64,000 nt of DNA. Source: Mayamaea pseudoterrestris (Eukaryota). A program made the position numbers and the translations under genes. Location: assembly GCA_027923505.1 (NCBI GenBank), contig BROI01000008.1, positions 372,001 to 436,000 of the forward strand, read 5' to 3'. Of the stretch, positions 21,338 to 40,169 are shown one piece after another (position 1 is the stretch's first letter; each line of letters opens with the position of its first letter). Below the pieces are notes generated by a model that saw nothing but the letters and a program-made list of their open reading frames with translations, had not been told where the DNA came from and searched no databases.

Positions 21338-22143
21338 CTGCACAGCTTTATTCGCACTCGATCTTTGAGTTGCACTGGATGGCTAAGTTTGCAATATGAT
21401 CTCTGTATACAATTCTAAAATTACATCCACAAAAAATATAAAATGTTACGTGTATTAGTTCAAATCATGTCTCTATATGGCTAACAATATGAAACTATGC
21501 AATGGTTCCAGTGCGTTAGCAAAGTGATGAAGCGAAAGTGGGATGAAGAATCTGTGGGCTGCACCTCATGGGAATGCAGCCTTTTGCAACACCATGCCAC
21601 CAACAGCTGAGTGTAATAATGAACGTTGTTGCTATAGGTCGAAACACTTGTTACAAGCGCTTCGCTATCACACCGGTAGAAATATACGGTAGTCAAGAAG
21701 GTCCTTCGGCGATGCGAATCTGGCTACCGTAGATCCATGACGTGTCATTCCTTTTTCAATCGCGCTTGATTAGGTGACGGGTCGCTTTGGCTGAAGTGCA
21801 TGACGCGCTCACGATTTGGCTCGTTGGTGTGTTCTTCAGACGGCCGTTCTTTGCCAGCGCTGCTCCTCCTTTCGAGTATATACGAAAGACTCGAGCAAAA
21901 GACCGTGGAGAACTGGTTGTTGATTAGCATTCACCCAATATTTTGTGCGAGATACCTGTCGAGGGAAGAAGGAAGATACACCAAGTGGAGACGAGTCGGT
22001 TCTGTTCCATTGCTCGTCGAATATTGGAAGCAAGGACAGAACGAAGCAGCGAGAACTCTATCGATTGACGTGTGGAGTTTTTAACGTCTATCAACTACTT
22101 TGCTTGAACAAGACATTGAATTGTTCACTAGTTATAGAACAAC

Positions 22144-23781: not shown

Positions 23782-24015
23782 AAAGTTTTAATGAGCTGCC
23801 ATTTGGAGTCCTTGTTTATATGCAGCTATAACGCTAACATTGGCACTTGTTGAATGGATATTTTGATTTTCTGTTTGTTGTTTGTGACAGTCGATAGAAT
23901 ATGGGCTGGCCGCTGTTGGCCTTTACCCAGAGACATAAAGAAACATATATTTTTCATCATTTCAAGCGACGAAGGCGTTGGAGAATAACGTCAAAAAAAT
24001 AAACAACGCCAAATT

Positions 24016-25755
24016 TTAGCTTGCTTGCTTGTCGTCGACAATAGTAGCACCTGCTGCGACTACCAGACTCTTCATGGAGTAAATGATTGTAGCCCCGTCA
24101 GCCCATTGTACGCCATAGCCGTAACGGCCACGTCTCTGCACGATTGTAGGGATGATTGCCGGATTCTTCTTCGTAGTTTTGATAACCATTACTTGATCAG
24201 ACTGTGTCTCCTCCATTCTTTTAAATGGACTTTCATCAAGGATTACTCCCGATTTTGGATCTCTGGCGCGAAGACTCACAGCTTTAATTTTCCGCTGTAC
24301 AGCTCCGAATTCGCCATAAAGGCGGACGTTGAAATTTTCGCTGACCTTGTCCAAAGAAAAATGAGTTGTCGCGACGTCAAAGACTGCATCTGACTCTGGA
24401 AACGTGGCTGTGACCTGGCTGTCAAGCTTGTTAAATTGCATCTTCAAGAGCTCACCCGTCAAAGCGTTTGCCAAAGTTCGGAAAGCCCCAAGCTCGCGAC
24501 CATATATTTCGCTTCGGACGAGGCAAAAGGGCTTTCCATCGTCATTTGCTGCATTCGTGTCTTCCGAAATGGGCAGCTGGACAGTCGCTGCGACATTTTT
24601 AAATTCATGGTTACTTTTGTCGCCAAGGCCACGACCGAATGGATAGTGCTTCCGTCCGCCTTCACATTCAAAATATGCCATGTTCTCTACAACAGCGACA
24701 GTCGGAACACCAAGCGAAGTAAACATTTCAATCCCTTTCATCGTATCCAGCGCCGCGAGCTTGGAAGGCGTCGTGACTGCGATTGACCCACTAATCTGTA
24801 GATCCTGCAAAACCTGAAGCTGTACATCGCCAGTGCCCGGAGGAAGATCCAAGACAAGAACATCAAGTTCTCCCCAATCAGTTCTTTTCATCAATTGCGA
24901 AACGACTTTACCCGCCATCGGACCTCTCATGACACTGGCACCATTTCCTTGTCCACTTCCCGGGACTCCGCTGTTAGCATTGACAAAACCAAGACTAAGT
25001 AATTTGACCTTTTCATGCTCAATTGGATAAACAAAGCCATTGCCAAGAGAACTCGACCGAATTGTAACATCCATTGGCCGTACCAGCATTGGCAGTGACG
25101 GACCGTAGATGTCAAGATCGACGAGTCCAACTCTACCTCCCATTGCCGCAAGTTCATATGCCAGATTGACGGCAACCGTGCTCTTTCCCACTCCACCCTT
25201 ACAGCTATAGACGGCAACAAAGTGAGCGACGTTCGTCAATCCAGGTCCCAAACTTGTAAACAGTTCGTCCGTGTCATCAACCAGTTGCGCCATCATTGGC
25301 CAAGGCGTCGAGGCAACCGCTTCGACATTCACAGTCGGGAGCTGCTGCACTAGCAAGCCTTGTGAGTCGATCCATTCCATTATCGATTTTTCAGCCTCTC
25401 TTTTGACTTGGTCTCTCAGTCGCGTCAGCTCGGGATGCAGCAGTGTCGGGAGTCGAAGCAATAAGTGCCAAGTCATTCCATCGTCCGAAACGGCAAATTT
25501 ACGATGTAGCCAATCTAGTGACGCCAAGTCTCGATCCAAAATAGGATCCTTGACTGCCAACGCCACTGATAAATGCAGATGGTCCTCCAACCGTGCTAAT
25601 TGTCGCTTGGAGAGAGTTTGAAGAAACCGATTCGCTGGTGCGTTTCGCGCTGAGCCGGTGAGTTGCGAACAACGCTTGCATTCCTGATAGCGTAGACTCT
25701 TTAACTGCGACGACGATGGGCGAAGCACCTTCAACATGGCGTTGACTACGACCAT
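24016..25755 (-). CDS. HCF101: HCF101/Mrp/NBP35-family Fe-S cluster carrier P-loop ATPase
   Basis: SCKGGVGKST, DLDIYGPSLP, VMRGP, DLPPGTGD, VVENM; DUF59-like N-terminus and DUF971-like C-terminus (GRYGYGVQWADG). Confidence 0.8.
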   Translation of the reverse strand: MVVVNAMLKVLRPSSSQLKSLRYQECKRCSQLTGSARNAPANRFLQTLSKRQLARLEDHLHLSVALAVKDPILDRDLASLDWLHRKFAVSDDGMTWHLLLRLPTLLHPELTRLRDQVKREAEKSIMEWIDSQGLLVQQLPTVNVEAVASTPWPMMAQLVDDTDELFTSLGPGLTNVAHFVAVYSCKGGVGKSTVAVNLAYELAAMGGRVGLVDLDIYGPSLPMLVRPMDVTIRSSSLGNGFVYPIEHEKVKLLSLGFVNANSGVPGSGQGNGASVMRGPMAGKVVSQLMKRTDWGELDVLVLDLPPGTGDVQLQVLQDLQISGSIAVTTPSKLAALDTMKGIEMFTSLGVPTVAVVENMAYFECEGGRKHYPFGRGLGDKSNHEFKNVAATVQLPISEDTNAANDDGKPFCLVRSEIYGRELGAFRTLANALTGELLKMQFNKLDSQVTATFPESDAVFDVATTHFSLDKVSENFNVRLYGEFGAVQRKIKAVSLRARDPKSGVILDESPFKRMEETQSDQVMVIKTTKKNPAIIPTIVQRRGRYGYGVQWADGATIIYSMKSLVVAAGATIVDDKQAS

Positions 25756-26136
25756 ACGTCCTGCAGGAACGCTCTATGAGTATATACTTTGATGGTTTTC
25801 CATCACCAACTTGCGTTTTGACGTTGATGGATCCAAAATCTTGGAGAACTGACGTACTGACATGAAGCGGCACTAAAATCTCAGTTATGTCGCTGCGACA
25901 TCATCGCGTTGTCCGAGGTTTATCTCGCTAGTACAGAGGTATGGAGGAAGTCCTGGCAGAAGCATTGAAAATTTCGATTTTTAATAAAGCCCTAGGCAAT
26001 ATTGGATGTAAATGTCATAAAGAATCCTGCCCCTAACATTGTTTTTTCTACGCGTGAAGCTACCGATCTTTTGTGTAGACATTCATTGCGTTTTGATTGG
26101 GTTTAGGTAAAAACGTGCGCTGCGATTGGCTCTATT

Positions 26137-26172
26137 GTTCGCTTGTATCGTTCGCCTAAGGAACAAGCGAAC
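26137..26172. other. Perfect 10-bp inverted repeat (hairpin), 16-nt loop
   Basis: GTTCGCTTGT (26137-26146) and ACAAGCGAAC (26163-26172). Confidence 0.8.
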
Positions 26173-26255
26173 CTAACCGAACCATGAATACTCGATATTA
26201 TTGCCTTCATATTTCTTGATCGTGGAAAACACTCTGATTGGCGTTTTCTGAACAT

Positions 26256-26370
26256 ACATTGTACAGTGTGTGGCAGTGTTGTAATGCATGTTATGTCGCT
26301 TGTGCTGTATTTAACTCACATTGTACTATATGCGGCAGTGTTTTAATGCAACTTGTGTCGCTTGTGCTGT
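26256..26370 (+). repeat. Imperfect tandem repeat, 62-bp period, ~2 copies
   Basis: ACATTGTAC..GGCAGTGTT.TAATGCA..T.TGTCGCTTGTGCTGT starting at 26256 and 26318. Confidence 0.85.
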
Positions 26371-26444
26371 GCTTCCATCGTGTCCCTCATTGAGTACGTT
26401 CTTTTTCTGGCAGTGTCGTTTGATCCATCATTGTATTTCCTCTT

Positions 26445-26721
26445 TTAGTTTTGCAGTGTCTTTTGGCCCATGCTGGTATCTCTTGATTGATGAGTTTTAG
26501 TATCGCGTGTTTCCGTATGTTGTCAAGAACGTTGGAATGGCTAATATAGAACGCGATGCACGCGTTGCCCGCATCAGAAGACCTCCGTTAGTTTTGCGGT
26601 GCCTTTTGGCCCATGCTGGTTTCTCCTTGATGAGTTTTAGTATCGCGTGTTTCCGCATGTTGTCGAAAACGTTGGAATGGCTAACATAGAACGCGATGCA
26701 CGCGTTGCCCGCATCAGAAGA
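26445..26721 (+). repeat. Tandem duplication of ~135 bp (26445-26581 and 26588-26721) covering the upstream region and start of the small DAR-family ORF
   Basis: Both copies read TTAGTTTTGC.GTG.CTTTTGGCCCATGCTGGT...GAACGCGATGCACGCGTTGCCCGCATCAGAAGA. Confidence 0.9.
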
Positions 26722-26829
26722 TTGCAGGAGGCCTGCGAAGAAGCGGAGGATGAGATTGTGTGGAACGCTGGAAACTTCTACAATGACAATTTGACGAATG
26801 AACTGATTTTGATTGACATTCGGCTATAG
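26677..26829 (+). pseudogene. Truncated copy of the island orphan 'DAR' family (MANIERDARVARIRRLQEACEEAEDEIVWNAGNFYND)
   Basis: Near-identical to the 5' part of ORF 32363-32824 on the opposite strand, then diverges and stops. Confidence 0.7.
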
Positions 26830-26839
26830 TACATGTTAT

Positions 26840-27499
26840 CTACATATTATTTCGAGCAACAGTTTCGGGTTCGTTGCCAACTCTTGACTGTGCTTCTTCA
26901 ACTCTTGCCGAAAACGCTTTGACTTCGACAATGGAACGGAATTTATATCCAAACTTTGGAGAATAGTAGAACCTGTCATATTGACGTTTCTTGCCATACT
27001 TTGCACGTCGTCGTTTGCATATTTGTATCCAACCGATTGCCCAATTCATCGATCGATTATTAACGGGACAGGAATATTGTACTTTATCCCAGTTTTTCGT
27101 TGACTCTAACGACCGAAGTAGAGTTCCATAGTGTTTCACTCTTGTTCCGTCTTCTTGCATATGAGTCCGAAACAACACGTATTCGTTGTTAGCCAACTCC
27201 ATGCCAAAACCCATTTGCACATGTACCTCCACGCGCGCGCATACCTCCTTGAAGTACTTGTGAAGGTTGTCGTGTACGCCATCCATCACTGCTTGAGTTA
27301 CGTATTCTGCGTTGAAGTTAGTTCGTGAGGGAATCATGTTGTGCAGACTTTGCGATCCGTGTCTTGTAACTGCTTGGAGCAGCGACATGTTATAAACTTT
27401 GGACACTGCGAGACAGAACATGTAATTAATTGCAAAGTTGGGTAAGTGTCCGTGGACACAACATTTAGTAGCAGGCACTTGCGCGACTCGTAACAGCAT
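26840..27499 (-). CDS. MBD-like family protein, copy A
   Basis: WAIGWIQICKRRRAKYGKKRQYDRFYYSPKFGYKFRSIVEVKAF matches the MBD consensus GW..R..G..D.YY.SP.G.KFRS..E. Shares upstream C.A.S...N..L and V(Q/R)MGF blocks with paralogues. First ATG at 27499 (the ORF-track start is TTG). Confidence 0.75.
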   Translation of the reverse strand: MLLRVAQVPATKCCVHGHLPNFAINYMFCLAVSKVYNMSLLQAVTRHGSQSLHNMIPSRTNFNAEYVTQAVMDGVHDNLHKYFKEVCARVEVHVQMGFGMELANNEYVLFRTHMQEDGTRVKHYGTLLRSLESTKNWDKVQYSCPVNNRSMNWAIGWIQICKRRRAKYGKKRQYDRFYYSPKFGYKFRSIVEVKAFSARVEEAQSRVGNEPETVARNNM

Positions 27500-27513
27500 C
27501 TTTACTTTGACAG

Positions 27514-27846
27514 TCAATGCAGGTGGTTGACTTGCGAAGGTAGTGAAAGGTTGAATTCGTCAACTCGTTTATATTGAAATGTGATTTTCCTTGGTCGAGA
27601 AAAACTCAACGCATAATCGTAGACATTGATATTTTTGTGGCGCTGGTTATCTAAGAGTTCTTTTCCTGTTAGCGTTGCGTTGTTCGCGAGATTGATATAT
27701 GTCACCATCTGGTATATATCCGATATCGAGCGTTGGGTGTTGCTCGTTGCCAATATTGGCAATATTGTTTGACGTGCTTCCGTTTTGGTGAAGCTGTGAG
27801 CGACCACCCGGCGCGCGATCCCGGCCGGATTCGCTAACGGATTCAT
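27514..27846 (-). CDS. Hypothetical protein (110 aa), island orphan
   Basis: ATG-initiated ORF abutting MBD copy A; may be its frameshifted N-terminus. Confidence 0.4.
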   Translation of the reverse strand: MNPLANPAGIARRVVAHSFTKTEARQTILPILATSNTQRSISDIYQMVTYINLANNATLTGKELLDNQRHKNINVYDYALSFSRPRKITFQYKRVDEFNLSLPSQVNHLH

Positions 27847-27926
27847 TTACAGTTGGGTCGTTTTTTGTTGGCGAACCGTGATGCGATCTTCACATCTCCG
27901 TGTAAAGTCCATTTGGCTCGTCTTGT

Positions 27927-28706
27927 TTGAATGAATCGTCTCTGATGCTTCTTGGAAGAGATCACTCATGGGACAGCACTTCGGTTTCGGCTGAAGAGTG
28001 TGAAGAGCTGCCTCTTCTGTTGGAATGGTTTATAGTGCTGTTGGCTGAATCTAAAGTATTGAATCACAATCTCGTCGAAGTAATTCGATCATCGGGTGTA
28101 AACAATGTGGTGACGCTTGCGAATGACAATGAATCAGTCTTCCAGGAAGGAGGTGATGCATTGACCGACTTCATATTCTGTATTGTTGATAACAGGTTTC
28201 GAAGTCGGTTTGACGCTGTGTATGAGCGAGCACACGAACTCCTGCGCATGGGGTATACGGTCGATAAGGAATTCGAAAAGCCGTATATCTCTCGATTCTT
28301 TCGTTATCTTCCCGATGGTGAGTGTAAAGAGAGATATCGCACGCTGCGAGTAATTATGGGAAGCCGGTTGCAAGAATCGTGTGGAAGTAAGTTCTTCGCT
28401 CCGGTCGACTGCAGGAAAATGACTTGGGAAAGAGGATGGATACAGTCTCGTGTTCAGCGCGTCTCGCGAAATGGCGAAAGGCAAGCTCGTTTCGATACTT
28501 ACTATTACACGTATCATTATGGTTTCAAGTTTCGATCCATTCCGGAGGTGAAGAGATTTTTGAGGTTGTACCATCGGTACGGCGGGGAACGTAATCCTGA
28601 AAGGTCGGAGTTCGAGGCACGCAGACATATTGCGATATCGCGCCGTCAAGAAAAGGATGCTAAGGCTCGACGTAAGAGATACCAATGGGTCGACGTAGTT
28701 AAGTAA
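27927..28706 (+). CDS. MBD-like family protein, copy B
   Basis: WERGWIQSRVQRVSRNGERQARFDTYYYTYHYGFKFRSIPEVKRFL; upstream LAESKVLNHNLVEVIRSSG and LRMGY blocks. Confidence 0.75.
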   Translation: MNESSLMLLGRDHSWDSTSVSAEECEELPLLLEWFIVLLAESKVLNHNLVEVIRSSGVNNVVTLANDNESVFQEGGDALTDFIFCIVDNRFRSRFDAVYERAHELLRMGYTVDKEFEKPYISRFFRYLPDGECKERYRTLRVIMGSRLQESCGSKFFAPVDCRKMTWERGWIQSRVQRVSRNGERQARFDTYYYTYHYGFKFRSIPEVKRFLRLYHRYGGERNPERSEFEARRHIAISRRQEKDAKARRKRYQWVDVVK

Positions 28707-29014
28707 TCTGCAACATAGAATGTGTTTCTATTGTTATTTATCTTGTAGACGGTCGCTTGTGGTTTCGCCATTCGTGTATCGTGTTGCACCTGTGGCCGTA
28801 CTGTGCCGACCGTGCGCGGGACAACGCTTTTGTTAAGCGTGTGAACTGAAAAGGACTTGTTGTTTGACACGTTAAGGGGTTTGACGGTTTCGAGAAAGAT
28901 AAATTCCGCTATGCAGCGATTTTCAAACGTCAGCACGCTCGCGTCGCATAACGAGAAGGAGTCGTTTTGCTGGTACGTGATGGCGAAATTTGAAATTTTG
29001 CCTCAACGCTCGAT

Positions 29015-31366
29015 ATGTTTACTTGTAGACGGCTATGTATTCTTACTACATATGTGTTTGTCTCTGTCATGCATATCATATTTGTTTTACGTCTATTTGC
29101 GATAATGCGTCTCGCAATACCATCGTTGGAAACCAAACGCGAACTTTTATCCCGAGCTTCTCAGGAGCTTGAGAGTTATGTCATTAAGGAGCCCCAGACT
29201 AAAACTCTTCATGCAGCTTTCTGCTGTGTTTGTGATGGTACTCCAGATGAGGCATATTGGCATAAAATGGTTTCTGTTACCAGAGTTGCGTCGCTGTGTT
29301 CGACTGCCAATATGCGAAAGGTTGATCTCTCCGACGTTTATCCGATGGACTTATTGAACGAATACACCGCTAAGCATCAAGCATTGAAGGATTATGTGTT
29401 ATCACCCGATGCCTACGTGAACAAAAGGAACGAGATATGCGTATGCCGTAAATGTCTTGTTGACCTAGAGACAAACGCAGAAGAGAGGAAAGCAAGGCGG
29501 CGGCCGCCGCGTCAATCAATCGCTAATGGGTATGTTATTGGCCATGAGCCTGAAGAGCTCAAGTGTCTCAATGAAGTCGAATTGGCTTTAATAAGTAAGG
29601 CGAAGCTCCATTGTCAGACATGGGTGTTTTTTGGAGGCTGTCACAAACAAATAAAGGGATGGACGACGCTTTTGAAGAACCATCCTGAAACTAACGTTGC
29701 TAATATGATGCAGATTCGGGATTCTGGCCTACACGGAAGACTCCTTGTGGTTCTATGTGGACCCTTCACTTCAACGCAGAAAGCCAAAGTGTTGCAGAAG
29801 ACCCGTGTTGATCCGGAAAAGGTTTTAAATGCCTGGAATTGGTTAAAGGTTAACAATTTTCGCTACCGTGACCTTCATATTCCCGACCCTGACAGCCTTC
29901 CGGTACCAAGAATTGTGGAAGATAAAGTAGAATGGCAAAGGAGTGTAAGCGTCGATGTTGAGAACGAAATGAGCATCACCCATGTCTTCCCGGATGTTAC
30001 TCTTCCTGGACGCATGAATGGAACGTTTCAGACTCAGGATGAATTCCGCAAGTATATTTTGGAGCATAACGGAGGGAATTACGAGGCGCAGATGCATGCT
30101 CGGCCTTCTGCTGACCGTTTCATGGATTTTGCGGGAGACACCATTGCAGATGCCTTTGTTTTACAGTTTCCTTACGGATTTACCGGTCTAGCCGATGACC
30201 CAGCTGTGCTGAAGTTGAAGAAGAGAAAAAGCAACACGCGATACTGCGGTCGAAAACGTATCGATGTTTACAAGAAGTATCTTCGGCATCGCAAATCTGT
30301 CTTTCATGGTCCAATGTTTGTCTTGGTAATAGAGAATCTTATTCTCAAGGAAGCCATCTTCAAAAGTGTTGTGATCCAGTGTAATATAAAACAAACGGAT
30401 GGTCGTTCCATTGCGGACAAATTCGGTACCATGTCCACCAGCCAGTTTGAAAAGGCGATTACAGATTGTCAGCAACAACACGGGGTTAACAAGCGAAACA
30501 CTACAGAGCATCGTTTTCTGCGCAGTATAACAGCGGTGTGTGAGAATCTGCCGCATACAAACGAAGCATCCCAGGATGCTCGCAAGGTATACTTTTCTTT
30601 CCTCATGAAATTCGGGATGCCCGCAATCTTTCTAACCGTTTCACCGGACGATCAGCGTAACTATCGCATTGTTGTTTACGCTCTCGGCAAAGAAAACTAT
30701 AATCCAGACAGTACAGTTAACGTGGCGAGCCTTACTGACCGACAGATTATCGACAATTTTCGGATGCGTCAGGATATTCGTTACGAGCATCCCGGGTTGT
30801 GCGCGGAGGAATATGAACGCGTTGTGAAAGCTGTTGTTAGTCATTTGTTCAATTGGGATATAGACAATCAGTGCAGTAAGGGAATCGGAATTTATTCTAA
30901 TCAGAGTATCGATGAAGTAATTGACAGAGTTTGTAATTTCCGCAGCCCATGGTTTCGTATTGCTGTCGCACGGCAATTCCGCTACATGACGACCCATGTC
31001 AGAATGGGCTTTGAAATGATACACGATGCTACTTCCGACTCATACTTTTTAGTTCGACGTTATAAGGTTCCTGTTGTCGAGTTACGCTGGCCGAGACTAG
31101 CTACAATCGAAAAGTCTCCACTAGGTGGGTCGATTACATTTCCACTTAGATTGCTTGGCTGTCGCAAAGAATGGGGTATTGGTTGGACGCGTTTGCAGAT
31201 ACCGGGTAATGATAAGACGCCGCGACGCGATTGCTTCTTTTCGCCCAAATTTGGATTCATGTTCATATCGATTGATCAGGTTAACTTCTTTGTAAGCCTT
31301 CTCGATCGATTCGAAGGGAGTGACTGGGAGATGGAGGAGTATGCTTTGTCAAAAGTCTGTGAATAG
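29015..31366 (+). CDS. Helitron Rep N-terminal region (DUF6570-like + Helitron_like_N) truncated and fused in frame to MBD-like copy C
   Basis: CCVCD...CRKC..L...P..SIANG..IG..PEEL..L..VE..LIS; KVLNAWNWLKVNN..Y; QFPYG..G; LPHT.EA....R; GMPAIFLTVSPDD (Rep motif 1). After KGIGI (~30893) it switches to VRMGF...WGIGW...FFSPKFGFMFISIDQV. No HUH motif, catalytic Tyr or PIF1 helicase. Confidence 0.8.
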   Translation: MFTCRRLCILTTYVFVSVMHIIFVLRLFAIMRLAIPSLETKRELLSRASQELESYVIKEPQTKTLHAAFCCVCDGTPDEAYWHKMVSVTRVASLCSTANMRKVDLSDVYPMDLLNEYTAKHQALKDYVLSPDAYVNKRNEICVCRKCLVDLETNAEERKARRRPPRQSIANGYVIGHEPEELKCLNEVELALISKAKLHCQTWVFFGGCHKQIKGWTTLLKNHPETNVANMMQIRDSGLHGRLLVVLCGPFTSTQKAKVLQKTRVDPEKVLNAWNWLKVNNFRYRDLHIPDPDSLPVPRIVEDKVEWQRSVSVDVENEMSITHVFPDVTLPGRMNGTFQTQDEFRKYILEHNGGNYEAQMHARPSADRFMDFAGDTIADAFVLQFPYGFTGLADDPAVLKLKKRKSNTRYCGRKRIDVYKKYLRHRKSVFHGPMFVLVIENLILKEAIFKSVVIQCNIKQTDGRSIADKFGTMSTSQFEKAITDCQQQHGVNKRNTTEHRFLRSITAVCENLPHTNEASQDARKVYFSFLMKFGMPAIFLTVSPDDQRNYRIVVYALGKENYNPDSTVNVASLTDRQIIDNFRMRQDIRYEHPGLCAEEYERVVKAVVSHLFNWDIDNQCSKGIGIYSNQSIDEVIDRVCNFRSPWFRIAVARQFRYMTTHVRMGFEMIHDATSDSYFLVRRYKVPVVELRWPRLATIEKSPLGGSITFPLRLLGCRKEWGIGWTRLQIPGNDKTPRRDCFFSPKFGFMFISIDQVNFFVSLLDRFEGSDWEMEEYALSKVCE

Positions 31367-31629
31367 ATATATAGACTCAGCTGCTATGTACGCGGTTTTA
31401 CTAGGATACTAATATACGTCCTCATTTTCTTGGACTTGGTTTTATTACATACGCAAATTTTGGGCCGTTGGAGCATGACTGACCGAAAATTTGCCGTTGG
31501 GTGTTAGCCAAATATTGGTGTGAAGGCCTTTGTGTTGATGTTATGGTCGTTCGAACGACTGAGTGCGTTGAAGGTGGACAGAGCTGACATGCTCATTAAC
31601 TGGCTGTTTGTACATACCCCAATGCTACT

Positions 31630-32307
31630 ATGAGAGTTAAACTTATAAAGGCGGATCCGCAAGTGTGCGATTTTAGATTCGAGGGCTATGTAAATAGTTT
31701 GATGTATTGCCAAGCTCTCTCAGATACAACCAATGAAGGACTCTTTGAAACGATTGAAAGATGCGGAGTGCGTTCTTTGAAACAGAAGATGCAATGTTTG
31801 CCTGCCAGGATGGATCCGTCTAACATTATTGACTATTTGCTTGGGGATAAATACCTGACTCGTCGTACGGAATACGATATACACTACCGTGAAGTCTTGT
31901 GTTGTGTTCGGATGGGTTTCGTGGTAGAGATAAAAGGGAAAAAACACACATTTATTCGAAGGTACGATAATCCTATTGGAGGCGCTAATGCTCCTCATAT
32001 AAAGGCGATCAAGTATCTGCAAGCAAATGCGAAGACATATCAGATACCATCATCAAGAACCAATTATCGTCTGCGTCACTGGGGACCAGGATGGATACAG
32101 TTCAATGTCCCTCGCGCCAACGCACCAAGAAAAGTCGACAAGTACTATATCTCACCAAGATGCGGGTTCAAGTTCCGTTCTGCGGTCGAAGTGACAAGAT
32201 TCGTTCAGGAAATGGGGAAGATAGATTTTCACGATCGCAGTCGCGCTGAGATGACTGCACGAAATCGTATCAAGTCGGTTACAAGTGCATCTACACGATA
32301 CGCATGA
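31630..32307 (+). CDS. MBD-like family protein, copy D
   Basis: WGPGWIQFNVPRANAPRKVDKYYISPRCGFKFRSAVEVTRFV; upstream YCQALSDTTNEGLFETIERCG and VRMGF blocks. Confidence 0.8.
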   Translation: MRVKLIKADPQVCDFRFEGYVNSLMYCQALSDTTNEGLFETIERCGVRSLKQKMQCLPARMDPSNIIDYLLGDKYLTRRTEYDIHYREVLCCVRMGFVVEIKGKKHTFIRRYDNPIGGANAPHIKAIKYLQANAKTYQIPSSRTNYRLRHWGPGWIQFNVPRANAPRKVDKYYISPRCGFKFRSAVEVTRFVQEMGKIDFHDRSRAEMTARNRIKSVTSASTRYA

Positions 32308-32362
32308 TTCTATACGTCGTGTTTTATATTTACGCGCTAAAACGGCAAAGTTAATAGTGCAT

Positions 32363-32824
32363 TTAACGTTTCCATTCCGTGTCGTATTTAAGCAAGCGAC
32401 CCTCGTCTCCATCCCACGTGTACTCTCTACTGATGTCATCGTTGTCCATAAGCGGGAGTAAATACCAATGACTGCCTTGGCTTCCTTCACATACGATGCG
32501 ACGATACAATTCCGGTTCCGTTTTGTCTAGCATTTCGTTCACGGCTGCAATGAAATCATCTCCTGTTCCAGGCATCTCGTGACGGATGAAGTTGTATAGC
32601 GTCACGAGCTTGGCGGCAGATCCACCGTTCTGCATCCAATCATTGCAGGCCCCCAGCATAATGTCCAAATTATGCTCATCCTCATACAGCATGTACTGGG
32701 TCTCATCATTGTAGAAGTTTCCAGCGTTCCAAACAATCTCATCCTCAGCTTCTTCGCAGGCCTCCTCAAATCTTCTGATGCGGGCATCGCGTGCATCGCG
32801 TGCATCGCGTTCCGTGTTAGCCAT
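32363..32824 (-). CDS. Island orphan 'DAR' family protein, apparently full-length copy (153 aa, acidic)
   Basis: MANTERDARDARDARIRRFEEACEEAEDEIVWNAGNFYNDETQY...; the 9-nt unit GCATCGCGT occurs three times. Confidence 0.65.
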   Translation of the reverse strand: MANTERDARDARDARIRRFEEACEEAEDEIVWNAGNFYNDETQYMLYEDEHNLDIMLGACNDWMQNGGSAAKLVTLYNFIRHEMPGTGDDFIAAVNEMLDKTEPELYRRIVCEGSQGSHWYLLPLMDNDDISREYTWDGDEGRLLKYDTEWKR

Positions 32825-33074
32825 TGCAACGTTTTCGATACGAGTGAAGTTGTGCACGCTTGTGTGATCTTATAACCCTTCCCTTCCTTCCCGTATACGT
32901 ATTTTTGAACGTTTGCATGGATATAATATCGTCGACGAATTCCCTTAACGCTCAGCAATATTGGCGATTAAGTGCGTATCTGCATGATTCGCTGCAGTAT
33001 GTGCTTTGATGTTTTGATATTCTATCGGCGGTTATCAAGTCAAAGGACGAACGCTTTACCGCACGATGTTATAT

Positions 33075-33238
33075 TCAATCGAAATAGTTAATAACGACAA
33101 CAAGCTGTACGCATGCATCTCGTTTCCGCATGTTTCCAGCGTTTCGAACTATATCCTCCACTGCTCCTTCCCATGCCTTTACGAGTTTTCTGTTGCGCGT
33201 ACGTTGCGTGCATTGCGTGCGTTTCGCGTTAAGTCCAT
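33075..33238 (-). pseudogene. Frameshifted diverged copy of the 'DAR' family
   Basis: MDLTRNARNARNVR in one frame and RNRKLVKAWEGAVEDIVRNAGN in another align to MANTERDARDARDAR and RIRRFEEACEEAEDEIVWNAGN. Confidence 0.6.
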
Positions 33239-33312
33239 TGGCTTGTTTCGTAAGGTGGTACGTCAATATAATATAAGCTATCAGCAAGGTAATAGTAACA
33301 ACAACATGCGTT

Positions 33313-33654
33313 TTATTCTGTATTTGCCAATGGTTGTTCTACGAAAACTCTTATTGTGAACAATTCGCAGTTCGACAATTCCTTGCACTTGATTATGATT
33401 GTGTAACATTTCCGGCATAACGGGCAACGAGGACATCGTCTTTTCGTCGTCTCTGTTTCGCTCCATTTTCTAATGCAGCGAATGCAAAATTTGTGTTCAC
33501 ATGAGTTTACCATTGAACGCTGTCTCTCTGTCATCGAGCCGTGACAAATTCCACAGTCATTCATTGCTGGATTTGTAGCGATAATGAAGCGACAACACAG
33601 CAAAGATTTGAAGATAATGCGAGTGGCATGACACTGGGATGCGATTGAGCACAT
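33313..33654 (-). CDS. Small C3HC4 RING-finger protein (likely start 33564)
   Basis: CGIC-x11-CEHKFCIRC-...-CPRCPLC. Confidence 0.75.
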   Translation of the reverse strand: MCSIASQCHATRIIFKSLLCCRFIIATNPAMNDCGICHGSMTERQRSMVNSCEHKFCIRCIRKWSETETTKRRCPRCPLCRKCYTIIIKCKELSNCELFTIRVFVEQPLANTE

Positions 33655-33669
33655 CTCGAATTCCAGTTT

Positions 33670-33711
33670 GCCGAAAAAGGGCTATTGTTGTTCTGGATAG
33701 CCTTTTTCGGC
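33670..33711. other. Strong hairpin, 15-bp stem with one bulge
   Basis: GCCGAAAAAGG(G)CTAT...ATAGCCTTTTTCGGC. Confidence 0.85.
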
Positions 33712-33837
33712 GACGACGGAAAATGTCACTCAACGGTAGGCTCCATCCAGCTTCATCCCTGACGTTCTATCTTTGATGATGAATGCCTTATTATTGTAGA
33801 GTTGTTGGACGACAAGCAGTCACAAGCATTATTCTGA

Positions 33838-34101
33838 ATGTCGCCAGTTGAAATGAGAGTAGACGAGCCATCTCACATCCCACGAACGGTGACTGGGGTA
33901 CAAGGAGGAACTCGTTCTGCTTTTGTCGTGGATCAAGTTGCTGTCATGTCGCCTTTTCTGGATGTACCTTCCAACAACACTGGGACGCGAAGTACACAGA
34001 GTCGGGAGCAAGGTGGTTACTGGAATGGCGATCATTGGGACATGAGACTGCTGACAAAGTCTCCGTGTTCTGTTCTTATTCATTTTGAAGGGTTCAAATA
34101 G
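33838..34101 (+). CDS. Hypothetical protein (87 aa), island orphan
   Basis: ATG-initiated ORF filling the gap between the hairpin and the MazG-like gene; no motif recognised. Confidence 0.3.
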   Translation: MSPVEMRVDEPSHIPRTVTGVQGGTRSAFVVDQVAVMSPFLDVPSNNTGTRSTQSREQGGYWNGDHWDMRLLTKSPCSVLIHFEGFK

Positions 34102-34138
34102 ACTGCAGTTGTAAAGTTAGCATTTATGATTAGTAAAT

Positions 34139-34801
34139 TCATCTGTTTAGCAGGCGTACAGCAAGTAATAGAATATCGGCCAATTCGTATCCTGCTTTGA
34201 TAATGTGGTCGACAGAGTATATCCTGGACGATTCGTTCTCGGGTAACCAGTTGAAACAGTCTGCAAATTCTGCAACTTCGTTGTCGATCGCGGTGACTAG
34301 ATTCGCAACTGTATCGAACTTGGTAAAGTCTCGTTCCTTGGCGAATGTTGTTGATATTTCAGTCAATTCGCTCACGATGCTATCGACGTGTTTTGTGTTA
34401 CTTGAGAAAGGTTGACGAGTATAACTTTGATGCACTCCATCAGGACGTGTGTCCACTGTGACTCCTGTTCTGCATGAAAGCATCGTGTACTTATCAATCC
34501 GATGCGGTGTGGTGTGAGTCATTACTGGATACTTTTTGGAATTCAATATCGACTTATCTTTCGCCAAGATTGAAAGGTTAACTTCAAGCAAATCTGCGGC
34601 GATGCATGTCTGGTGAATGATAACATCCGTGAACCTGTTCAGCAATGTGGTATTCATGTGAATCGCGTTCCGATTTGTAATCATATATTCGAAAATGCCC
34701 TTGGACGCAACTTTCATGCGAAAGTAGATGTCTCGAATGCATGCGTCGTCTACCGTCCTAGTGATGCATCCTTGCAATGTATGAGGGTTCATGTCTATCA
34801 A
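34139..34801 (-). CDS. MazG-like / DCTPP1 (RS21-C6)-type dCTP pyrophosphatase domain protein with unknown N-terminal half
   Basis: FAKERDFTKFDTVANLVTAIDNEVAEFADCFNW...GYELADILLLAVRL matches F..ERDW..F..P.NL..A...EV.EL...F.W...ELAD.L.Y..RL; the ExxE...ExxD metal ligands are retained. Confidence 0.75.
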   Translation of the reverse strand: MIDMNPHTLQGCITRTVDDACIRDIYFRMKVASKGIFEYMITNRNAIHMNTTLLNRFTDVIIHQTCIAADLLEVNLSILAKDKSILNSKKYPVMTHTTPHRIDKYTMLSCRTGVTVDTRPDGVHQSYTRQPFSSNTKHVDSIVSELTEISTTFAKERDFTKFDTVANLVTAIDNEVAEFADCFNWLPENESSRIYSVDHIIKAGYELADILLLAVRLLNR

Positions 34802-35167
34802 GTAATCGTGTTTGACCGTGATGTTGTGAGGCTTCTGTGCGAAAGCTAACTCGGGATAATTCGCGCCGGGAAACCGTTGAAATAAATTTTTCGCAGTCGT
34901 TGAATTCTCCTTGGCCGAAATCGTCTGAGTCGTTTTCCCAGACGAAAAAATCGTAGATCCGTTGAGTGTTGTAGAACGTTGTTTTGGTCTTATATTTCTG
35001 AGTCGGTTAGTAAACGGATGTACGATTACCGAACAGGTCGACGAAAGTTAAGATCCGTATATGTTGTCGAGTCTTGCACTGAATATTTGGAGGCCAAATA
35101 TTGATTAAATTGGTGATGTAAGTACAGCAAGTTGCGAGGAAACATCTCATAAAATCAATCCTGAAAC

Positions 35168-35925
35168 ATGACCAAGACGACCCCTGCCAAGAGTAAAGAG
35201 GAGACCAAAAGCCCTACCAAGGCGAATTCGTCCCCAGTGGTCCGGGCTTCTCCACCCCGCAGCAGCAACGTCAAACAAGGAAAAGGAACGGAAGCCAGAC
35301 TTGTAACGCACCCTGTCCATCCGGATCTTGCGTTGCAGATTATAACCTACGAAGATAGCACGGAACGAAAGGACGCGTATAACTTTCCATTGAAGGATGG
35401 CATCAAGAATCCGCACAAGCTGTCGGCCCGCGCGAAAGAAATCGATCTCAAGGTTTTCAACCGTCGTGTTCCGGGAACGAGCGAGAGTATGTTGCAGTTG
35501 AACACCACGTCTGGGGAGGCATACCCAAGAGCTGTGTTTGTTCGTAAATTTCCGGCACCTCCGACACCAGCGGAGCGAATGGAGACGATGGCGATCATGG
35601 AAGAAGTCCTGCGTGGCGATAAGACGAGCAAGTACCCACCTCCCAATATTCGCAAGATGGACTACAATCCCACAGATCGGGTTCGACCACTTGATGATTG
35701 TAAGCTTTCTTACTTGTTCAATGTTTGGTATGGTTATCATGTACTTACAAATATCCATTTATAGTTTTCCAGGATAACACCATCGAGGCCTTGATCAAAT
35801 CCATGTACGACTTTGAGGTCCTCAACCATGACTTCGCCACCTCCTATCCTGAATTGTTGGGTGGCATATTTGGTCGTCCTACTGAGCATCGTTTTGCCAG
35901 AGACCTTGGACGTAGCGATGACTAA
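35168..35925 (+). CDS. Spliced island orphan protein (intron 35700-35764)
   Basis: A GTAAGC...TTTATAG 65-nt intron joins ORFs 35168-35764 and 35725-35925 in frame (LDD|FFQDNTIE); Ser/Pro/Lys-rich N-terminus. Confidence 0.7.
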
Positions 35926-36061
35926 GTGTCTACTATAGTATATAGAGAGTGGAGATATAAGATAACGACGATTATAAATTATCACTTTCTTTCAAACATA
36001 GACTAAAGGATTGTCACTCGCTCCTCTTGTTCGCTCTGGTAACGTAACAGCCATCGAATGA

Positions 36062-38818
36062 TTACCCGCATTTTTCCAGACCAACGACAACGAATTCTTT
36101 AAACATTCGATAGACCGGATCCTCGTCGGTGAAAAAAACATGATGCAACTTGGGTACCTTCACCGCATTTGTAAACGAATTATCGTCGTTTGTTGTGCAT
36201 TCCTTCAAGCATGCCATAGTAGCATTCAGGAGTTGTTGGTATGCTGCAATGATCGGTTTCTCCACCCGTTGGTCACTATTGAGCGCATCGAATGCAATCT
36301 TGAAGAGCAGCTCAGCTGTCATGCTCGGACTCATAGTTTCATGCTGATCGAAGGCTGCCGTGAACAAGTTCTGGAACATAAGAAATACTCCACTTTCTGG
36401 GAAAGTGGCAATGTCGTTCGTCATTATCGCGATGTTGAATACAAACCAATTTCTCATGCTTTCGAGGTCTTTGGTAGTCGCGAAAAGTTTGTTTGCCGAC
36501 CGTTCAAATCCACCCTCTTCTAGTTGCGCAATTTCGTCATCGGAGCACACGGACGCAAGTGCCTTGAATGCCGCCTTGGAAATTACTTGCATGGGTGTTT
36601 CACCAGCTTTAAGTTTTGCGTCCTCATGATTTAACTTGACACTTTTCGCAGGTACTGGAGAGGATGCCGATTCGTGCACGGAAAGTGTTTCGTCGTGTGT
36701 TCGCTTTCCATTTGATTGGTCTTTCAGCGACTGACAGTATGTACTGTCCGGAGGCACACCCGCTTGGCGTAAAAGCAATGAAACAATAAAATCGGTACCA
36801 AACTCCTTTGCGATTGTGTCGCCAACTTCGTCTCCCACAGGAAACACTTTTTGCAACACTTCGAATAGTCCGAGGATCTGTTCCTGACGAGACATATCAA
36901 TCTTCTTCTCCACGATAGTGTCAAGCTTTGCCTCTGTAAATTGTAAACCTTTGCCTCCATCGGCAACGATTATAAGTTCGTTGCGCTGATCAGAAAAGGA
37001 CGAACCCATGACGTGAATTATAATATTCGCACATAAAGAAGAGGCCGTCATCATCTGAGCTGTCGACTTGGTGATCACATTACAAAACCCAAGCTTATTG
37101 TTACAATGGCTTTCCAAGTTGCTGTATTGATTGGCAAATAATGGCTGAGAAGAAATGGGTTAGTTATTACGAACGGGACATGATTAGCACCGCAAGAGCT
37201 GCTTTCCACTTACATCTTGGACGATTGGAGCATATGCCAAGTGGCACAGCGCACGAGCCGAAGAACGACGTTTGAGATAGTACCATGCGTTTTTGTTGAT
37301 GTTGGTGCATTTAGGATCAAATGCTGCACTTATGAAGTTACGAACGATGCATTTTGCGTTCCTGGTGTTGTCATAAAAACGTTCTCCAGCTCCACCGTTC
37401 CCAAGGAGTACGATAGTGGCGATCGACAAAAATAATGCCATTATGTTCCCGTAGGAATCCAAACGTAAGAGAACATCAGCCTTTGAGTCCAGGATGTTCA
37501 CTTTCTGCTTGTATTCATATGCGTCCGGAATGATACTAGTGGCGTACGGAATTGCCAATCCTTCTTTAATTGCTGAAGTTGTCCAAAACTCAATCATGCA
37601 GACCAAGTTGTCGCAATCATTAATCAGATTTGCTGCGGCTGACGAGCAGATAGACAATGAGCAATAGTTGATGGAAGAATACAAGATGAACAGCTGTGCA
37701 ACGAGCTGCTTACCAATAACTCTTAGTGTATACTTCATCAATATATCACTTCCTTTGTCGAATCCAAGAAGCGGCACATCAAGGTCGATGCATGACGCAA
37801 CATACGCCACAAACAGACCAGAAATTGCTTTGTAGAATTTCTTGTGCTTGATCATTTCGTCTTGCCAATACATAGGCTCCTTCGATTTATTGATGAAATC
37901 AGGGGATGTCGCGGCGGATCTTAATTCCTTGAAGTCGAGTTTAGCCTTTTCAATATGTTGCGAGTAGGATTTGTAGGTTTCCAGCTCGGGAAGTGCCAGG
38001 AAGGATTCCATGTTCTTCGAAGCAAGATGAGTCTCAATCTCCTCGATCTTTTCGGATACTCTCATGTGCATCTGCTCTTCTTCATCTTTAAGGTCAAGGT
38101 ATAAATAATTGTCTGACAACTTGTTTTCCAGCTCGTAAAACGGATTGCTACTTTCGGTTGTTGTTCGTTTTGATTTATTCAAGCCTCGCGTGTTTATAGA
38201 CTTGGTAGAAGGCAGGACACGATACAATTGCGTAGACGGACGAGTCACTCGAGACGATTGCGTTCGAGTCGATACCTGGTGCACATGCCGAGTACGGGCG
38301 GTGGATTGATGTGTGGCTTCGTCTTCATCGGTATCGGGCTTGTCGTCGATGTCGTTATCGTCGGAATTTGACGAACTGATTGGATCGGAATCAAGATTGT
38401 TGGAATCTGAAGCACTGCTATCTTCATGAGCAGAATGCGTTGAATCAGATGTTGCGTCCGTTGCATTCGATGGAGTGCGTGACGCCGCTCCATTCCCCAT
38501 GTCTGTCGTCTCGGCCGCATGGATACTGGAGTCTTCTTCTTCGTTGCTTGGAGGCACTGGAGCGTTTCGGAAACCGGCTACCACTTTGTTGAAGATAGAA
38601 TTAATCATGGGGTCTGCTGTGGGATTCTCCGCGACGAGCAATTGGTTTGACACTTGTACGATACGTTTTGCCTTCTTACTCTTGTTTTTTGTTGCAGTAA
38701 TTCGTTTTGGCATTATATGATGGTTATAGCGAAAACGACGAGCGTGGAGAGCGTTGTCTATCGTAACGAACGTTCGAGATTTGTCACCTCTCCCAGTCCG
38801 CTCGTTCCATCTTGGCAC
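36062..38818 (-). CDS. Large spliced island orphan protein (~850 aa; intron 37145-37213, probable in-frame intron 37639-37713)
   Basis: A GTAAGT...CTAAC...TTCTCAG intron joins ORFs 37184-38818 and 36062-37117 in phase 0. NLS-like KNKSKKAKR, acidic disordered tract, helical-looking remainder. Start may be MPKRIT near 38713. Confidence 0.7.
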
Positions 38819-39115
38819 GATTTTTCAGCGAAAGTTTTCGTGGGCGACTGCGGTCATCCAACGGATGTTTCTGACGTCATCGAACATTTTTGTTTAACGA
38901 CAATACCATTTCAAATTAACTGTCAACCCATGTGTAGCCTAGAATTAAAATTTACTGTAATCCTATGAGTAGTAAAATCAAGTATTCAATTACATCCACA
39001 ACCATAAACCGAGCCCCCAAGACAGAATTCCGGCGTTTCGACCATTGCGGCCGATCTGTCGCACCATTTGTTTTGTCTTTGTGAACGACCAAAGTAAAGC
39101 ATCGGTCGAATTAGT

Positions 39116-40127
39116 ATGAACAGCACGGAAGAAAGATGTCTATGGAAGAGAACGATGAGTCCTGAAACTCTAAGACGAAATGATTCGGCGGAGACTCTTG
39201 CATCGATGCAAGCAAGATTCGCCTCGACGCCGCCAAAACTTTCCTTCTGGCAGTTATGTTCGAGATCGCATGTTGTTGTCCAAGAAATATCAATAACAGC
39301 TTACTTGTTAACGAGACATAGGTTATTGATAGAAATGAAAGAGCGGCAATTTACAATTGACTCCAGGAGGAACAGTGCATCATCTTGCTTCATTGTCGTG
39401 GCGTTGCTTGTTGTTTTATTCTTTGGATCGCGAGGCGAATCAGCGCAAGACCGAAGGGCAAAGGTCACACAGAGAGCCACGGACGGTCTTTTATCGGCTA
39501 CACTTCTACGCCTCATGGCCAGCTTTCTGCAGAGTCTGACTGCATCCTACGCTTCTGATACGCTATACACTTTGGCTGTCGCTGGACTTGCCTTGCATAT
39601 CCTAGCTTGCGACTATTCGTACGCTAATGGCCGCAATCACAATTCTTCAAAAAAGAACCATGTCATGAACGCACTGGGTCGACCTTTGTTTCACGGCGGA
39701 ACAGTGTCTTTAAACTCGGCCTTGTTCAGTACGATGCTATTGGTGTCCAGGCTCGACACGTCCGAAGCTTACTTCTTCATATACTTTGCAATTGTCCTCT
39801 TTGCATTCTATCCTGTGTCCAGGAACTCTATTACAGCTAGCTTTCCAGCCCATGACAATGGTGAGAAAGAACGGTAGTCATCGAGAACCTGTGTGCCGAT
39901 ATCATGCCGCTTACTTTGTGGAATTTTGTTTCGCAGTGGCTCTCTGGCTCGTTACGCTCCTTGTATGTCTTGCAACTGGAGTTCTGCTTAAATCCTGGCA
40001 CGAGTGTGTATTATTCGTGATTGGCGCTATGCTGTTTGGGCTATTCATGCCACTTTGGAGGTTTGTTGCACAGAAAAACAAGGTTTTTCTTCTTGGACCA
40101 TGGGATATACCAACGAAAATTGTATGA
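39116..40127 (+). CDS. PIGC: Phosphatidylinositol N-acetylglucosaminyltransferase subunit C (GPI2/PIG-C), intron 39861-39936
   Basis: LQSLTASYASDTL, HILACDY, VSLNSALFSTMLLVSRL, C-terminal QKNKVFLLGPWD. Confidence 0.85.
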
Positions 40128-40169
40128 AAAGTACGAGTACTGTACATAAACTAAATAAAGGAACCAATA

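Follow-up and report, generated by a model that had tools for sequence, protein, structure and literature searches.

We analyzed a 64-kb window of the nuclear genome of the diatom Mayamaea pseudoterrestris (contig BROI01000008.1, positions 372,001 to 436,000), in which a block of about 13.1 kb lies between two head-to-head, divergently transcribed housekeeping genes, one HCF101-like and one encoding GPI2/PIG-C. With moderate confidence, we read this block, hereafter the island, as a non-autonomous, rearranged composite derived from a Helitron-like element (HLE) of the HLE2 group (Helitron2/Helentron), which sits in the HCF101-like/PIG-C promoter region on part of the chromosome copies. The genes that belong to the element family would be a Rep fragment, an accessory gene that we call gene H, and perhaps a MazG-like gene. 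The four MBD-like genes, the RING gene, ORF E, and gene I/J would be passengers or local expansions private to the lineage, not standard equipment. An earlier reading of the window (the original prediction) had described a mobile, Helitron-related island carrying a candidate cytosine-methylation or anti-silencing toolkit. Its inventory of open reading frames (ORFs), with a Helitron Rep N-terminal part, four MBD-like copies, a DCTPP1-like ORF, a RING, and several orphans, was confirmed by Pfam, PDB, and paralogue searches, and every item was found where it had been placed. Our annotation of the island comes from ORF calls and a Pfam scan (Table 1).

The island is a discrete unit that is absent from part of the chromosome copies, i.e., it is hemizygous. 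We placed the contigs of four public runs (X2, X3, X4, and X7) on window positions 22000-41999; X2 and X3 represent one sample, with X2 coming from a second study. One contig in each of X2 and X3 joins position 25883 to 39028, skipping 13,144 bases with 17 letters between. Because 16 of these 17 letters repeat window positions 25882-25897, the breakpoints fall at 25897/25898 and 39027/39028, slightly outside the borders first proposed (25918 and 39009). The empty allele reads to 25897, carries one extra G, and resumes at 39028, with a CA indel 14 nt upstream. Read depths are additive: in X2, the joint (18.8) and the island contigs (34.7 and 35.4) compare with 51.4 and 54.9 in the flanks, and in X3, the joint (8.1) and the island (7.8) compare with flanks of 11.4-14.9. 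The X2 island contigs of 2,866 and 3,238 nt reach both borders with 0 differences to the window. A skipping contig together with additive depths makes the island a presence/absence variant, and the empty HCF101/PIG-C site that the original prediction had proposed to look for in reads is thus present in X2 and X3. The available part of the species' genome paper describes a diploid genome with 2.97% heterogeneity from which haplotigs were purged, which fits one filled and one empty haplotype.

The same two runs also hold a smaller variant, in which 210 nt within 26104-26315 (the left non-coding part) are skipped with 4 letters between, at depths of 13.2 and 4.1. At the left junction of the filled allele (25887-25901) there is a perfect 6-bp stem with a 3-nt loop, half in the flank and half in the island; it is absent in the empty allele and is no better than in shuffled sequences. 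Runs X4 and X7, which are labelled as other organisms and share their study with the likely source run of the window, gave contigs of 151-288 nt at depth 2-5 over 22694-41413, mostly identical to the window, including the island, with a few diverged pieces. These look like carry-over between libraries and not shared sequence, and the X4/X7 contigs gave no empty-site cover and no sister-species information.

The relation to Helitrons rests first on the long ORF C (29015-31366, plus strand). Its N-terminal part matches DUF6570 (E 9.9e-19; 68.5 bits, above the cut-off) and Helitron_like_N (E 9.2e-6; 26.4 bits, below the cut-off of 28.9). DUF6570 is described as a marker of HLE2 that lies in frame with the Rep-helicase protein, RepHel (PMC11417382, in the part available). 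We found 59 protein relatives of 430-1371 residues, the best of which, after the window's own public model (P0001), is 48% identical. Relatives that carry both DUF6570 and Helitron_like_N are 43-48% identical to the ORF over ∼600 residues. By its DUF6570 domain and by its homology to HLE2 RepHel proteins, the fragment belongs to the HLE2 group. One close relative (P0006, 45% identity) comes from a 4.7-kb contig filed under a cyanobacterial metagenome-assembled genome; the contig most probably stems from a eukaryotic transposon and was binned by mistake.

The Rep is cut short before its catalytic part. Homology to nine of nine tested full-length relatives ends at 30886-30898, and at the point where the window ORF diverges, each of eight relatives compared in the alignment continues with an H-x-H stretch. 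In tblastn searches of the window, the nine full-length relatives matched nothing beyond the Rep N-terminal part, and the helicase-containing relatives P0007, P0015, P0039, and P0051 matched 29159-30898 alone. Neither the HUH motif nor the catalytic tyrosines were found in the island (alignment of eight relatives; tblastn with nine), and no island ORF has a Pfam match to PIF1. The island thus lacks both hallmarks of an autonomous Helitron-like element, the HUH/tyrosine nuclease and the PIF1 helicase, and so cannot move itself; movement would have needed a Rep-helicase supplied in trans. From the cut onward, ORF C continues in frame into an MBD-like module. A diverged contig that carries a further copy of Rep differs from the window mostly at silent sites: of the 28 differences listed, 20 hit the third base of a codon (p 4e-5), and of the 23 codons changed, 18 still specify the same amino acid. 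The same test on MBD-like paralogue B, a small sample, gave no such bias (5 of the 8 differences listed at third positions; 1 of 6 changed codons synonymous).

The second line of evidence is gene H. Our comparison set comprised 80 metagenomic loci related to Rep (540 kb). All 80 contain Rep, with DUF6570 and Helitron_like_N and, where the locus is long enough, PIF1; their long ORFs with these three domains mark them as true Rep-helicase elements. ORF H gave weak tblastn matches in four of the loci. With an iterated profile, an H-like ORF of 230-260 residues turned up in 26 of 80 loci; of the 39 loci whose sequence reaches more than 1,200 nt upstream of Rep, 24 have it. The ORF starts a divergent layout in 25 of these 26 loci, being 53-1,661 nt upstream of Rep and on the other strand. 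The family members belong to one clade of Helitron-like elements with DUF6570 (loci L001-L046), e.g., at L011:1708-2388(-) and L017:1774-2532(-). In the island, the H ORF had looked cut off, with the family profile resuming in another frame. Removal of a 65-nt GT..AG intron (GTAAGC..TATAG, phase 1) joins the two parts, so that H is intact to the family end, and one of the predicted orphans (35168-35764) is now part of this two-exon, Helitron-associated gene. With an accessory gene shared by 26 of 80 related loci, the relation to Helitrons is stronger than originally seen. In X2 and X3, the A-run inside the H intron has one more A (window position 35748), which leaves the reading frame unaffected.

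What is gene H? A model of the family (19 sequences, the first from L011) is alpha/beta, with a pLDDT of 84 and a pTM of 0.77. Against solved structures, neither Foldseek (best match the HSP90 N-domain, E 0.013, TM 0.21) nor VIA (best Z 5.5) gave a convincing match. The family has no match in Pfam or NCBIfam and none at 0.9 or above in the protein atlas, and it is not among the captured domains named in the available text of PMC11417382.

Beyond the H-like gene, the metagenomic elements hold two more conserved ORF families, both on the same strand as Rep. One occurs in nine loci (L017:3-1664, L018:4871-6820, L025:1390-2763, and six more) and the other in three (L032:1584-2582, L030:1720-2676, L027:1853-2803); neither has a Pfam match or a relative in the window. 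The position next to H that corresponds to these two families is held in the island by gene I/J. As candidates for membership in the upstream ORF families, I, J, E, and A2 were rejected (no hmmsearch match; hhalign probabilities of 0.0-0.7%). At the nucleotide level, the non-coding parts of the island gave chance-level short matches to the 80 loci. Two of the loci share a stretch: L006 643-4251, upstream of the element, matches L012 9121-12726, downstream of the element (∼3.6 kb, 99% identity), and these elements may lie in a tandem or repeated context.

Third, parts of the island exist elsewhere in the genome. X2 contigs that are 81-91% alike cover 27065-27501 (paralogue A), 30176-30553 (Rep), and 32115-32778 (the end of D plus E), and further diverged pieces fall within 35920-38884 and at the right end. 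Summed over exact and diverged copies, depths are 71.2, 56.7, and 63-67.5, which exceed the flank depth of 51-55; the diverged copies therefore lie at other sites of the genome. A single diverged contig has alignments to the left and to the right of the Rep/MBD junction (joint 30888 to 30974), which suggests that the fusion predates the duplication. In addition, the last 35-47 nt of the island recur in other sequence contexts, where contigs of X2, X3, and X7 match from 38983/38984 to 39017-39030 and are unlike the window on both sides. These diverged copies and the recurring right end make it likely that the block was mobile as a unit in the past. The proposed mobile element stands as a discrete presence/absence unit with diverged copies of several parts and an I/J paralogue on another contig, but not as an element with an intact Rep-HUH-PIF1 protein in the window, as HUH motif, tyrosines, and helicase are all missing from its Rep.

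Several observations weigh against an HLE2-derived composite that arrived by insertion. The skipping contig has just 30 letters on its shorter side, X2 and X3 are not independent, and the depths are contig means. The extra G at the joint and the CA indel can be explained by a deletion that left a filler base no less than by an insertion. We found neither the ends of HLE1 (5'-TC, 3' hairpin plus CTRR, A-T target) nor those of HLE2 at the island borders; the latter are given as terminal inverted repeats of 12-16 nt, a 3' stem-loop, and a T-T target in the accessible text of PMC11417382. On the plus strand, the block starts with ACAT/CATC and ends with AGAA (on the minus strand, it starts with TTCT and ends with GATG(T)), and the last base of the left flank is G or A instead of T. 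When the two ends are compared, the best inverted match (22 of 27 nt) is at internal positions, the 16-mer at the right end finds no inverted partner within the island, and folding of the ends is on a par with shuffled sequences (z -0.62 to 0.61). Rearrangement may have removed the original ends. In the metagenomic relatives, copies gradually lose their similarity past the stop codon of Rep, so that no ends could be defined for comparison. Within the island, H and the Rep fragment share a strand and are separated by 3.8 kb, which differs from the divergent layout of the family, so at least one rearrangement must be assumed. A, B, D, E, A2, the RING ORF (F), and I/J have no counterpart in the 80 loci, and the four MBD-like copies, RING, E, A2, and I/J make up ∼8 of the 13 kb. 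The duplication that gave the I/J paralogue is old, at 49% identity, and need not be transposition. Lastly, the published repeat table (supplementary Table S3 of the genome paper, as available) lists 0 rolling-circle elements.

It is therefore worth weighing a reading in which the block was never mobile. Here, a fast-evolving, lineage-specific gene cluster (the MBD-like, I/J, and E families) was hit by an old Helitron, and the empty allele is a later 13-kb deletion. The missing target-site signature and termini and the filler base at the empty junction agree with this, as does the age of the I/J duplication. Tandem and inverted duplications, namely the four diverged MBD modules and the repeated 5' ends of E, point to local expansion, most of the ORFs have no relative near any Rep, and the public record treats both I/J and the Rep/MBD ORF as normal annotated genes. 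Nonetheless, we consider this reading rather unlikely. Without the block, the HCF101-like and PIG-C genes are ∼230 bp apart, a divergent promoter region that is the simpler ancestral state. The GC content of the island (44.7%) is 3-4 points below that of both flanks (48.8% and 47.8%). The right terminal stretch recurs elsewhere while its neighbouring sequence does not, and diverged copies come from segments along the whole block, including across the Rep/MBD junction. The joint presence of Rep, H, and a MazG-like gene, the latter two seen beside Rep elsewhere, would have to be a coincidence. We thus favour the HLE2-derived composite and, for its origin, consider insertion rather than deletion likely; the block would have arrived at this site and not been lost from the other haplotype.

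Still less probable, to the point that we give it hardly any weight, is an assembly chimera, a contaminant, or an integrated virus. The points in favour of such an origin end with the GC content below that of the flanks and with the MazG-type enzymes, which are common in viruses. However, X2, from the second study, holds 98% of the island's sampled words, and its contigs match without differences up to both borders. Genes H and I/J carry eukaryotic GT..AG introns, and the Pfam scan showed no capsid or polymerase genes. In a viral contig collection, a search with the single Rep protein found no relative, and one with the Rep alignment gave 27 pattern matches, of which 0 were confirmed.

An MBD-like module of ∼220 residues is present in four copies that are 22-29% identical to one another, namely paralogues A, B, and D and the last 150 residues of ORF C (A is 24-29% identical to the other modules). 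The copy in ORF C has no Pfam match and is visible by paralogue comparison alone (tblastn E 1.8e-5 to 4.7e-6); P0001 covers positions 23-213 of the module profile. A profile of the four modules finds exactly these four ORFs in the window and nothing else. Among 1.84 billion representative proteins, it retrieves 257 at E <= 1e-3. The profile retrieves true MBD proteins: 28 of the 29 top matches tested carry PF01429, and a check of ten matches by name gave seven from plants, including four that are called MBD proteins. What these proteins share with the island is the MBD core of ∼50 residues alone. Of 149 proteins scanned, 146 had any domain match, and in 6 of these a match reaches beyond position 110 of the profile toward the N-terminus; none is as complete as the window's own. 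The intact MBD-like ORFs have no full-length relatives elsewhere in this collection. An exact look-up found none of ten island ORFs in the protein collection, and a word-based search with D returned no relative of 123-394 aa, the window's own ORF included; public gene sets seem to lack A, B, and D.

Structure prediction points the same way for the core. The closest solved structure to D is AtMBD6 (7d8k, E 0.0028). The C-terminal part of the D model (pLDDT 70) superposes on AtMBD6 7fef with a TM by target of 0.69 and an rmsd of 2.6 over 48 columns; no Foldseek row for the model reaches E 0.001. The helical N-terminal 140 residues of the module gave no fold match (best Z 3.8). Paralogues A, B, and D retain two arginine columns and a D-x-(x)-Y-Y stretch that the fused copy has lost. 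We take the two arginines and the Asp/Tyr residues to be methyl-CpG contacts, as in MeCP2 and MBD2. Membership in PF01429 is supported by sequence matches above the cut-off for D and B, and the predicted fold and putative contact residues agree with it.

ORF G has no Pfam or NCBIfam match. Its residues 141-214 match DCTPP1/RS21-C6 chains (7mu5 E 2.5e-5, 2a3q 4.4e-5; range 2.5e-5 to 1e-4), and four acidic metal-binding residues are kept, in E-x-x-E and E-x-x-D motifs that align to DCTPP1. This homology and the two motifs place G in the family of MazG-type all-alpha NTP pyrophosphatases. Its reading frame closes once three helices have been encoded; sequence resembling the last helix follows further down in a different frame, and no GT..AG intron was found that would join the two. 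We considered a tandem of two MazG domains and rejected it (N-terminal DCTPP1 match at an i-Evalue of 310; hhalign probability of 0.1% between the N- and C-terminal parts). One of the 80 related loci, L045, holds a relative of G (29% over 173 aa, E 6.9e-13), which lies 2.4 kb upstream of a Rep-helicase of 1,848 aa, on the other strand. This relative matches an archaeal pyrophosphatase (4qgp, 6.9e-11) and DCTPP1 (6e-10). The stand-alone RING ORF F matches zf-C3HC4 (27.5 bits; cut-off 21) in addition to zf-RING_2 and belongs to the RING family; no other Pfam family than MBD, RING, DUF6570, and Helitron_like_N matches, above cut-off, in the island ORFs.

These genes might be combined into a system that would keep the element unsilenced. 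In its first form, the whole block is one mobile Helitron whose cargo would comprise MBD readers, a pyrophosphatase that clears 5-methyl-dCTP, and a RING ligase and would read, mask, or prevent the methylation of cytosine. In its second form, the island is hemizygous and maintained by selection, with a dead Rep-MBD fusion, three MBD readers, a DCTPP1-like enzyme clearing modified dCTP out of the nucleotide pool, and a RING ligase, which would jointly blunt or read CpG methylation at the element's own copies, with H as a further component. We regard both forms as unlikely. Under the composite reading that we favour, the cargo products probably act on DNA or chromatin, because three MBD copies keep the residues with which known MBDs contact methyl-CpG and G keeps its four acidic residues. 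Several observations speak for a toolkit: three of the four MBD-like copies keep both arginines and the D/Y stretch, the four-module profile retrieves true MBD proteins, G keeps its motifs, L045 has a relative of G next to a full Rep-helicase, the block varies by presence and absence and has more copies in diverged form, and the differences in the Rep/MBD ORF are biased to synonymous ones. There are also precedents, in TET/JBP dioxygenases on transposons, including Helitrons (PMC12730594, in the accessible text), in plant MBD7, and in VANC.

The counter-evidence concerns the recurrence and the state of the cargo. The MBD module was found in 0 of 80 Rep loci, RING in 0 of 80, and a MazG-like gene in 1 of 80. 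None of the 149 MBD-profile matches scanned carries Rep, and among the 59 Rep relatives, the module occurs in the window's own protein alone. The cargo thus does not recur as would be expected of a transposon-encoded anti-silencing system. The original prediction had held that it would be contradicted if the MBD, MazG, and RING ORFs never co-occurred with a Helitron Rep elsewhere; in this sample, that is the outcome for MBD and RING, and not for MazG, which L045 carries beside a full Rep-helicase. Moreover, the Rep is catalytically dead and has no helicase, the MBD copy fused to it has lost both arginines, and G ends before its last helix. The island has a CpG observed/expected ratio of 1.23, compared with 1.11 and 1.09 for its flanks, despite the lower GC content of the island. 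CpG is not depleted, so there is no deamination footprint of long-standing methylation. In all, an anti-silencing role is plausible but unsupported, being read from the names of the predicted domains.

ORF E has no family match and is found in 0 of 80 loci; ORF A2 likewise has no relative in the 80 loci. Two of the predicted orphans are exons of a single 835-aa gene, I/J. The I/J paralogue, P0210 (845 residues), is 49% identical over its whole length and lies on another contig (1,239,468 bp); neither it nor the I/J model (P0209) has a Pfam family, and I/J is found in 0 of 80 loci. An assignment of J to DUF6532, from protein atlas clusters at 0.91 with a low shared-feature count, was treated as chance, as Pfam finds nothing in P0209. 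An inverted pair of 124-133 nt, made of the 5' end of E, brackets 5.9 kb that hold the MBD/Rep block. At the left of the island are tandem repeats of 62 nt x2 (26251-26370) and 143 nt x2 (26439-26721). The first 40 codons of E with a short leader occur at least four times: as two tandem copies and one inverted copy to the left of the MBD/Rep block (26439-26786), and as a direct copy, 74% alike, between E and the RING ORF (33132-33230); the 5' end of E itself is at 32706-32838.

Table 1. Features of the island and its flanking genes (positions in the 64-kb window)
Feature	Position	Strand	Basis or remark
Left flank gene, NUBPL/HCF101-like P-loop NTPase	24016..25755	-	ParA/NUBPL PF10609, E 3.2e-68
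Island, ∼13.1 kb presence/absence block	25898..39027	.	Breakpoints from skipping contig
Left non-coding part, tandem repeats and fragments of the 5' end of ORF E	25898..26839	.	Repeats of 62 nt x2 and 143 nt x2
Left arm of inverted repeat bracketing the MBD/Rep block	26663..26786	.	87-95% alike to right arm
MBD-like paralogue A, 219 aa	26840..27499	-	MBD 20.9 bits, just below cut-off 21
ORF A2, 110 aa	27514..27846	-	Weak DUF7375, E 0.0046, below cut-off
MBD-like paralogue B, 253 aa	27945..28706	+	MBD 22.6 bits, above cut-off 21
Helitron Rep N-terminal part (DUF6570 and first part of Helitron_like_N), cut before HUH; public gene model starts at 29105	29015..30898	+	Pfam, relatives
Degenerate MBD-like module, in-frame fusion with the Rep fragment, both arginine positions replaced	30899..31366	+	Paralogue comparison, own profile
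MBD-like paralogue D, 225 aa, best-preserved copy	31630..32307	+	MBD 31.9 bits, E 1e-7
ORF E, 153 aa	32363..32824	-	No family
Right arm of inverted repeat (5' end of ORF E)	32706..32838	.	87-95% alike to left arm
RING finger ORF F, stand-alone, 113 aa	33313..33654	-	zf-RING_2 30.6 bits, cut-off 27.3
ORF G: C-terminal 75 aa DCTPP1-like MazG-type pyrophosphatase domain, N-terminal 130 aa without assignment	34139..34792	-	phmmer against PDB
Gene H, Helitron-associated accessory gene, 230 aa	35168..35925	+	Exon 1 35168-35699, intron 35700-35764, exon 2 35765-35925
Gene I/J, one 835-aa protein, public model P0209	36062..38713	-	Exons 36062-37054 and 37184-38713
Right terminal stretch recurring in other sequence contexts	38984..39027	.	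Contigs of X2, X3, and X7
Right flank gene, GPI2/PIG-C (first exon ORF)	39116..39877	+	PF06432, E 1.7e-24

To our knowledge, Helitron-like elements have barely been described in diatoms. Our literature searches found no report that joins a Helitron with DCTPP1 or with MazG, and, among the papers listed for Helitron, diatom, and methyl-CpG, none that joins all three. The filled and empty alleles form a pair within a bidirectional housekeeping promoter, which offers a direct test of how a 13-kb transposon-derived block affects its neighbours. The intact MBD-like ORFs without full-length relatives elsewhere are material to work with, and H is a conserved Helitron accessory family with a confident predicted structure and no recognizable fold. 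Should the MBD/MazG cargo act on methylation, algal rolling-circle elements would join the few transposons known to carry epigenetic countermeasures. A Rep-MBD fusion that, with readers, an enzyme, and a RING, counters silencing or regulates itself would be of a kind not described for Helitrons. If the cargo does not act on methylation, the island is still a clean example of a decayed Helitron as a nursery for new genes.

How does the island compare with known systems? VANC of the Arabidopsis VANDAL transposons is encoded by the transposon and counteracts the methylation of its own family. Compared by description, its likeness to the island is one of concept alone, as VANDAL is a Mutator-type transposon and not a Helitron. 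DCTPP1/RS21-C6 shares its two acidic motifs with G, which has an extra N-terminal part of 130 residues and ends before the last helix. Among plant proteins, the multi-MBD proteins of the MBD7 and MBD13 type and AtMBD5/6 are the best profile matches of the island MBD core, and AtMBD6 is the best solved match; they share the core of ∼50 residues, whereas the 140-residue N-terminal part of the island module is largely unmatched. Plant MBD7, in the sources as available, is described as an anti-silencing reader that suppresses the silencing of methylated transgenes.

Among transposons, fungal DNA elements, including Helitrons, encode TET/JBP dioxygenases, for which an escape from methylation-based silencing has been proposed (PMC12730594, in the part available). 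That system is a 5mC-oxidizing enzyme that recurs in many families, whereas the island has predicted readers (MBD) and a nucleotide-pool enzyme, with MBD in none of the related loci. With HLE2 elements, the island shares the Rep N-terminus with DUF6570, as do the 80 related loci, which carry DUF6570, Helitron_like_N, and PIF1; it differs in having no HUH, tyrosine, helicase, terminal inverted repeats, 3' stem-loop, or T-T target. Extra genes in fixed positions beside RepHel have been described for HLEs, and the proto-Helentron HelenPi572 of Phytophthora infestans, an HLE2, carries SET (Su(var)3-9/E(z)) and TIR domains (both from the accessible text of PMC11417382). The SET/TIR cargo of HelenPi572 differs from the MBD, MazG, and RING of the island, and, according to the same text, HelenPi572 is an autonomous element of which 16 of 17 copies have defined ends, whereas the island has neither property. 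As an HLE2 of a stramenopile with chromatin-related cargo, HelenPi572 nonetheless resembles the element from which the island is proposed to derive, with its predicted MBD cargo.

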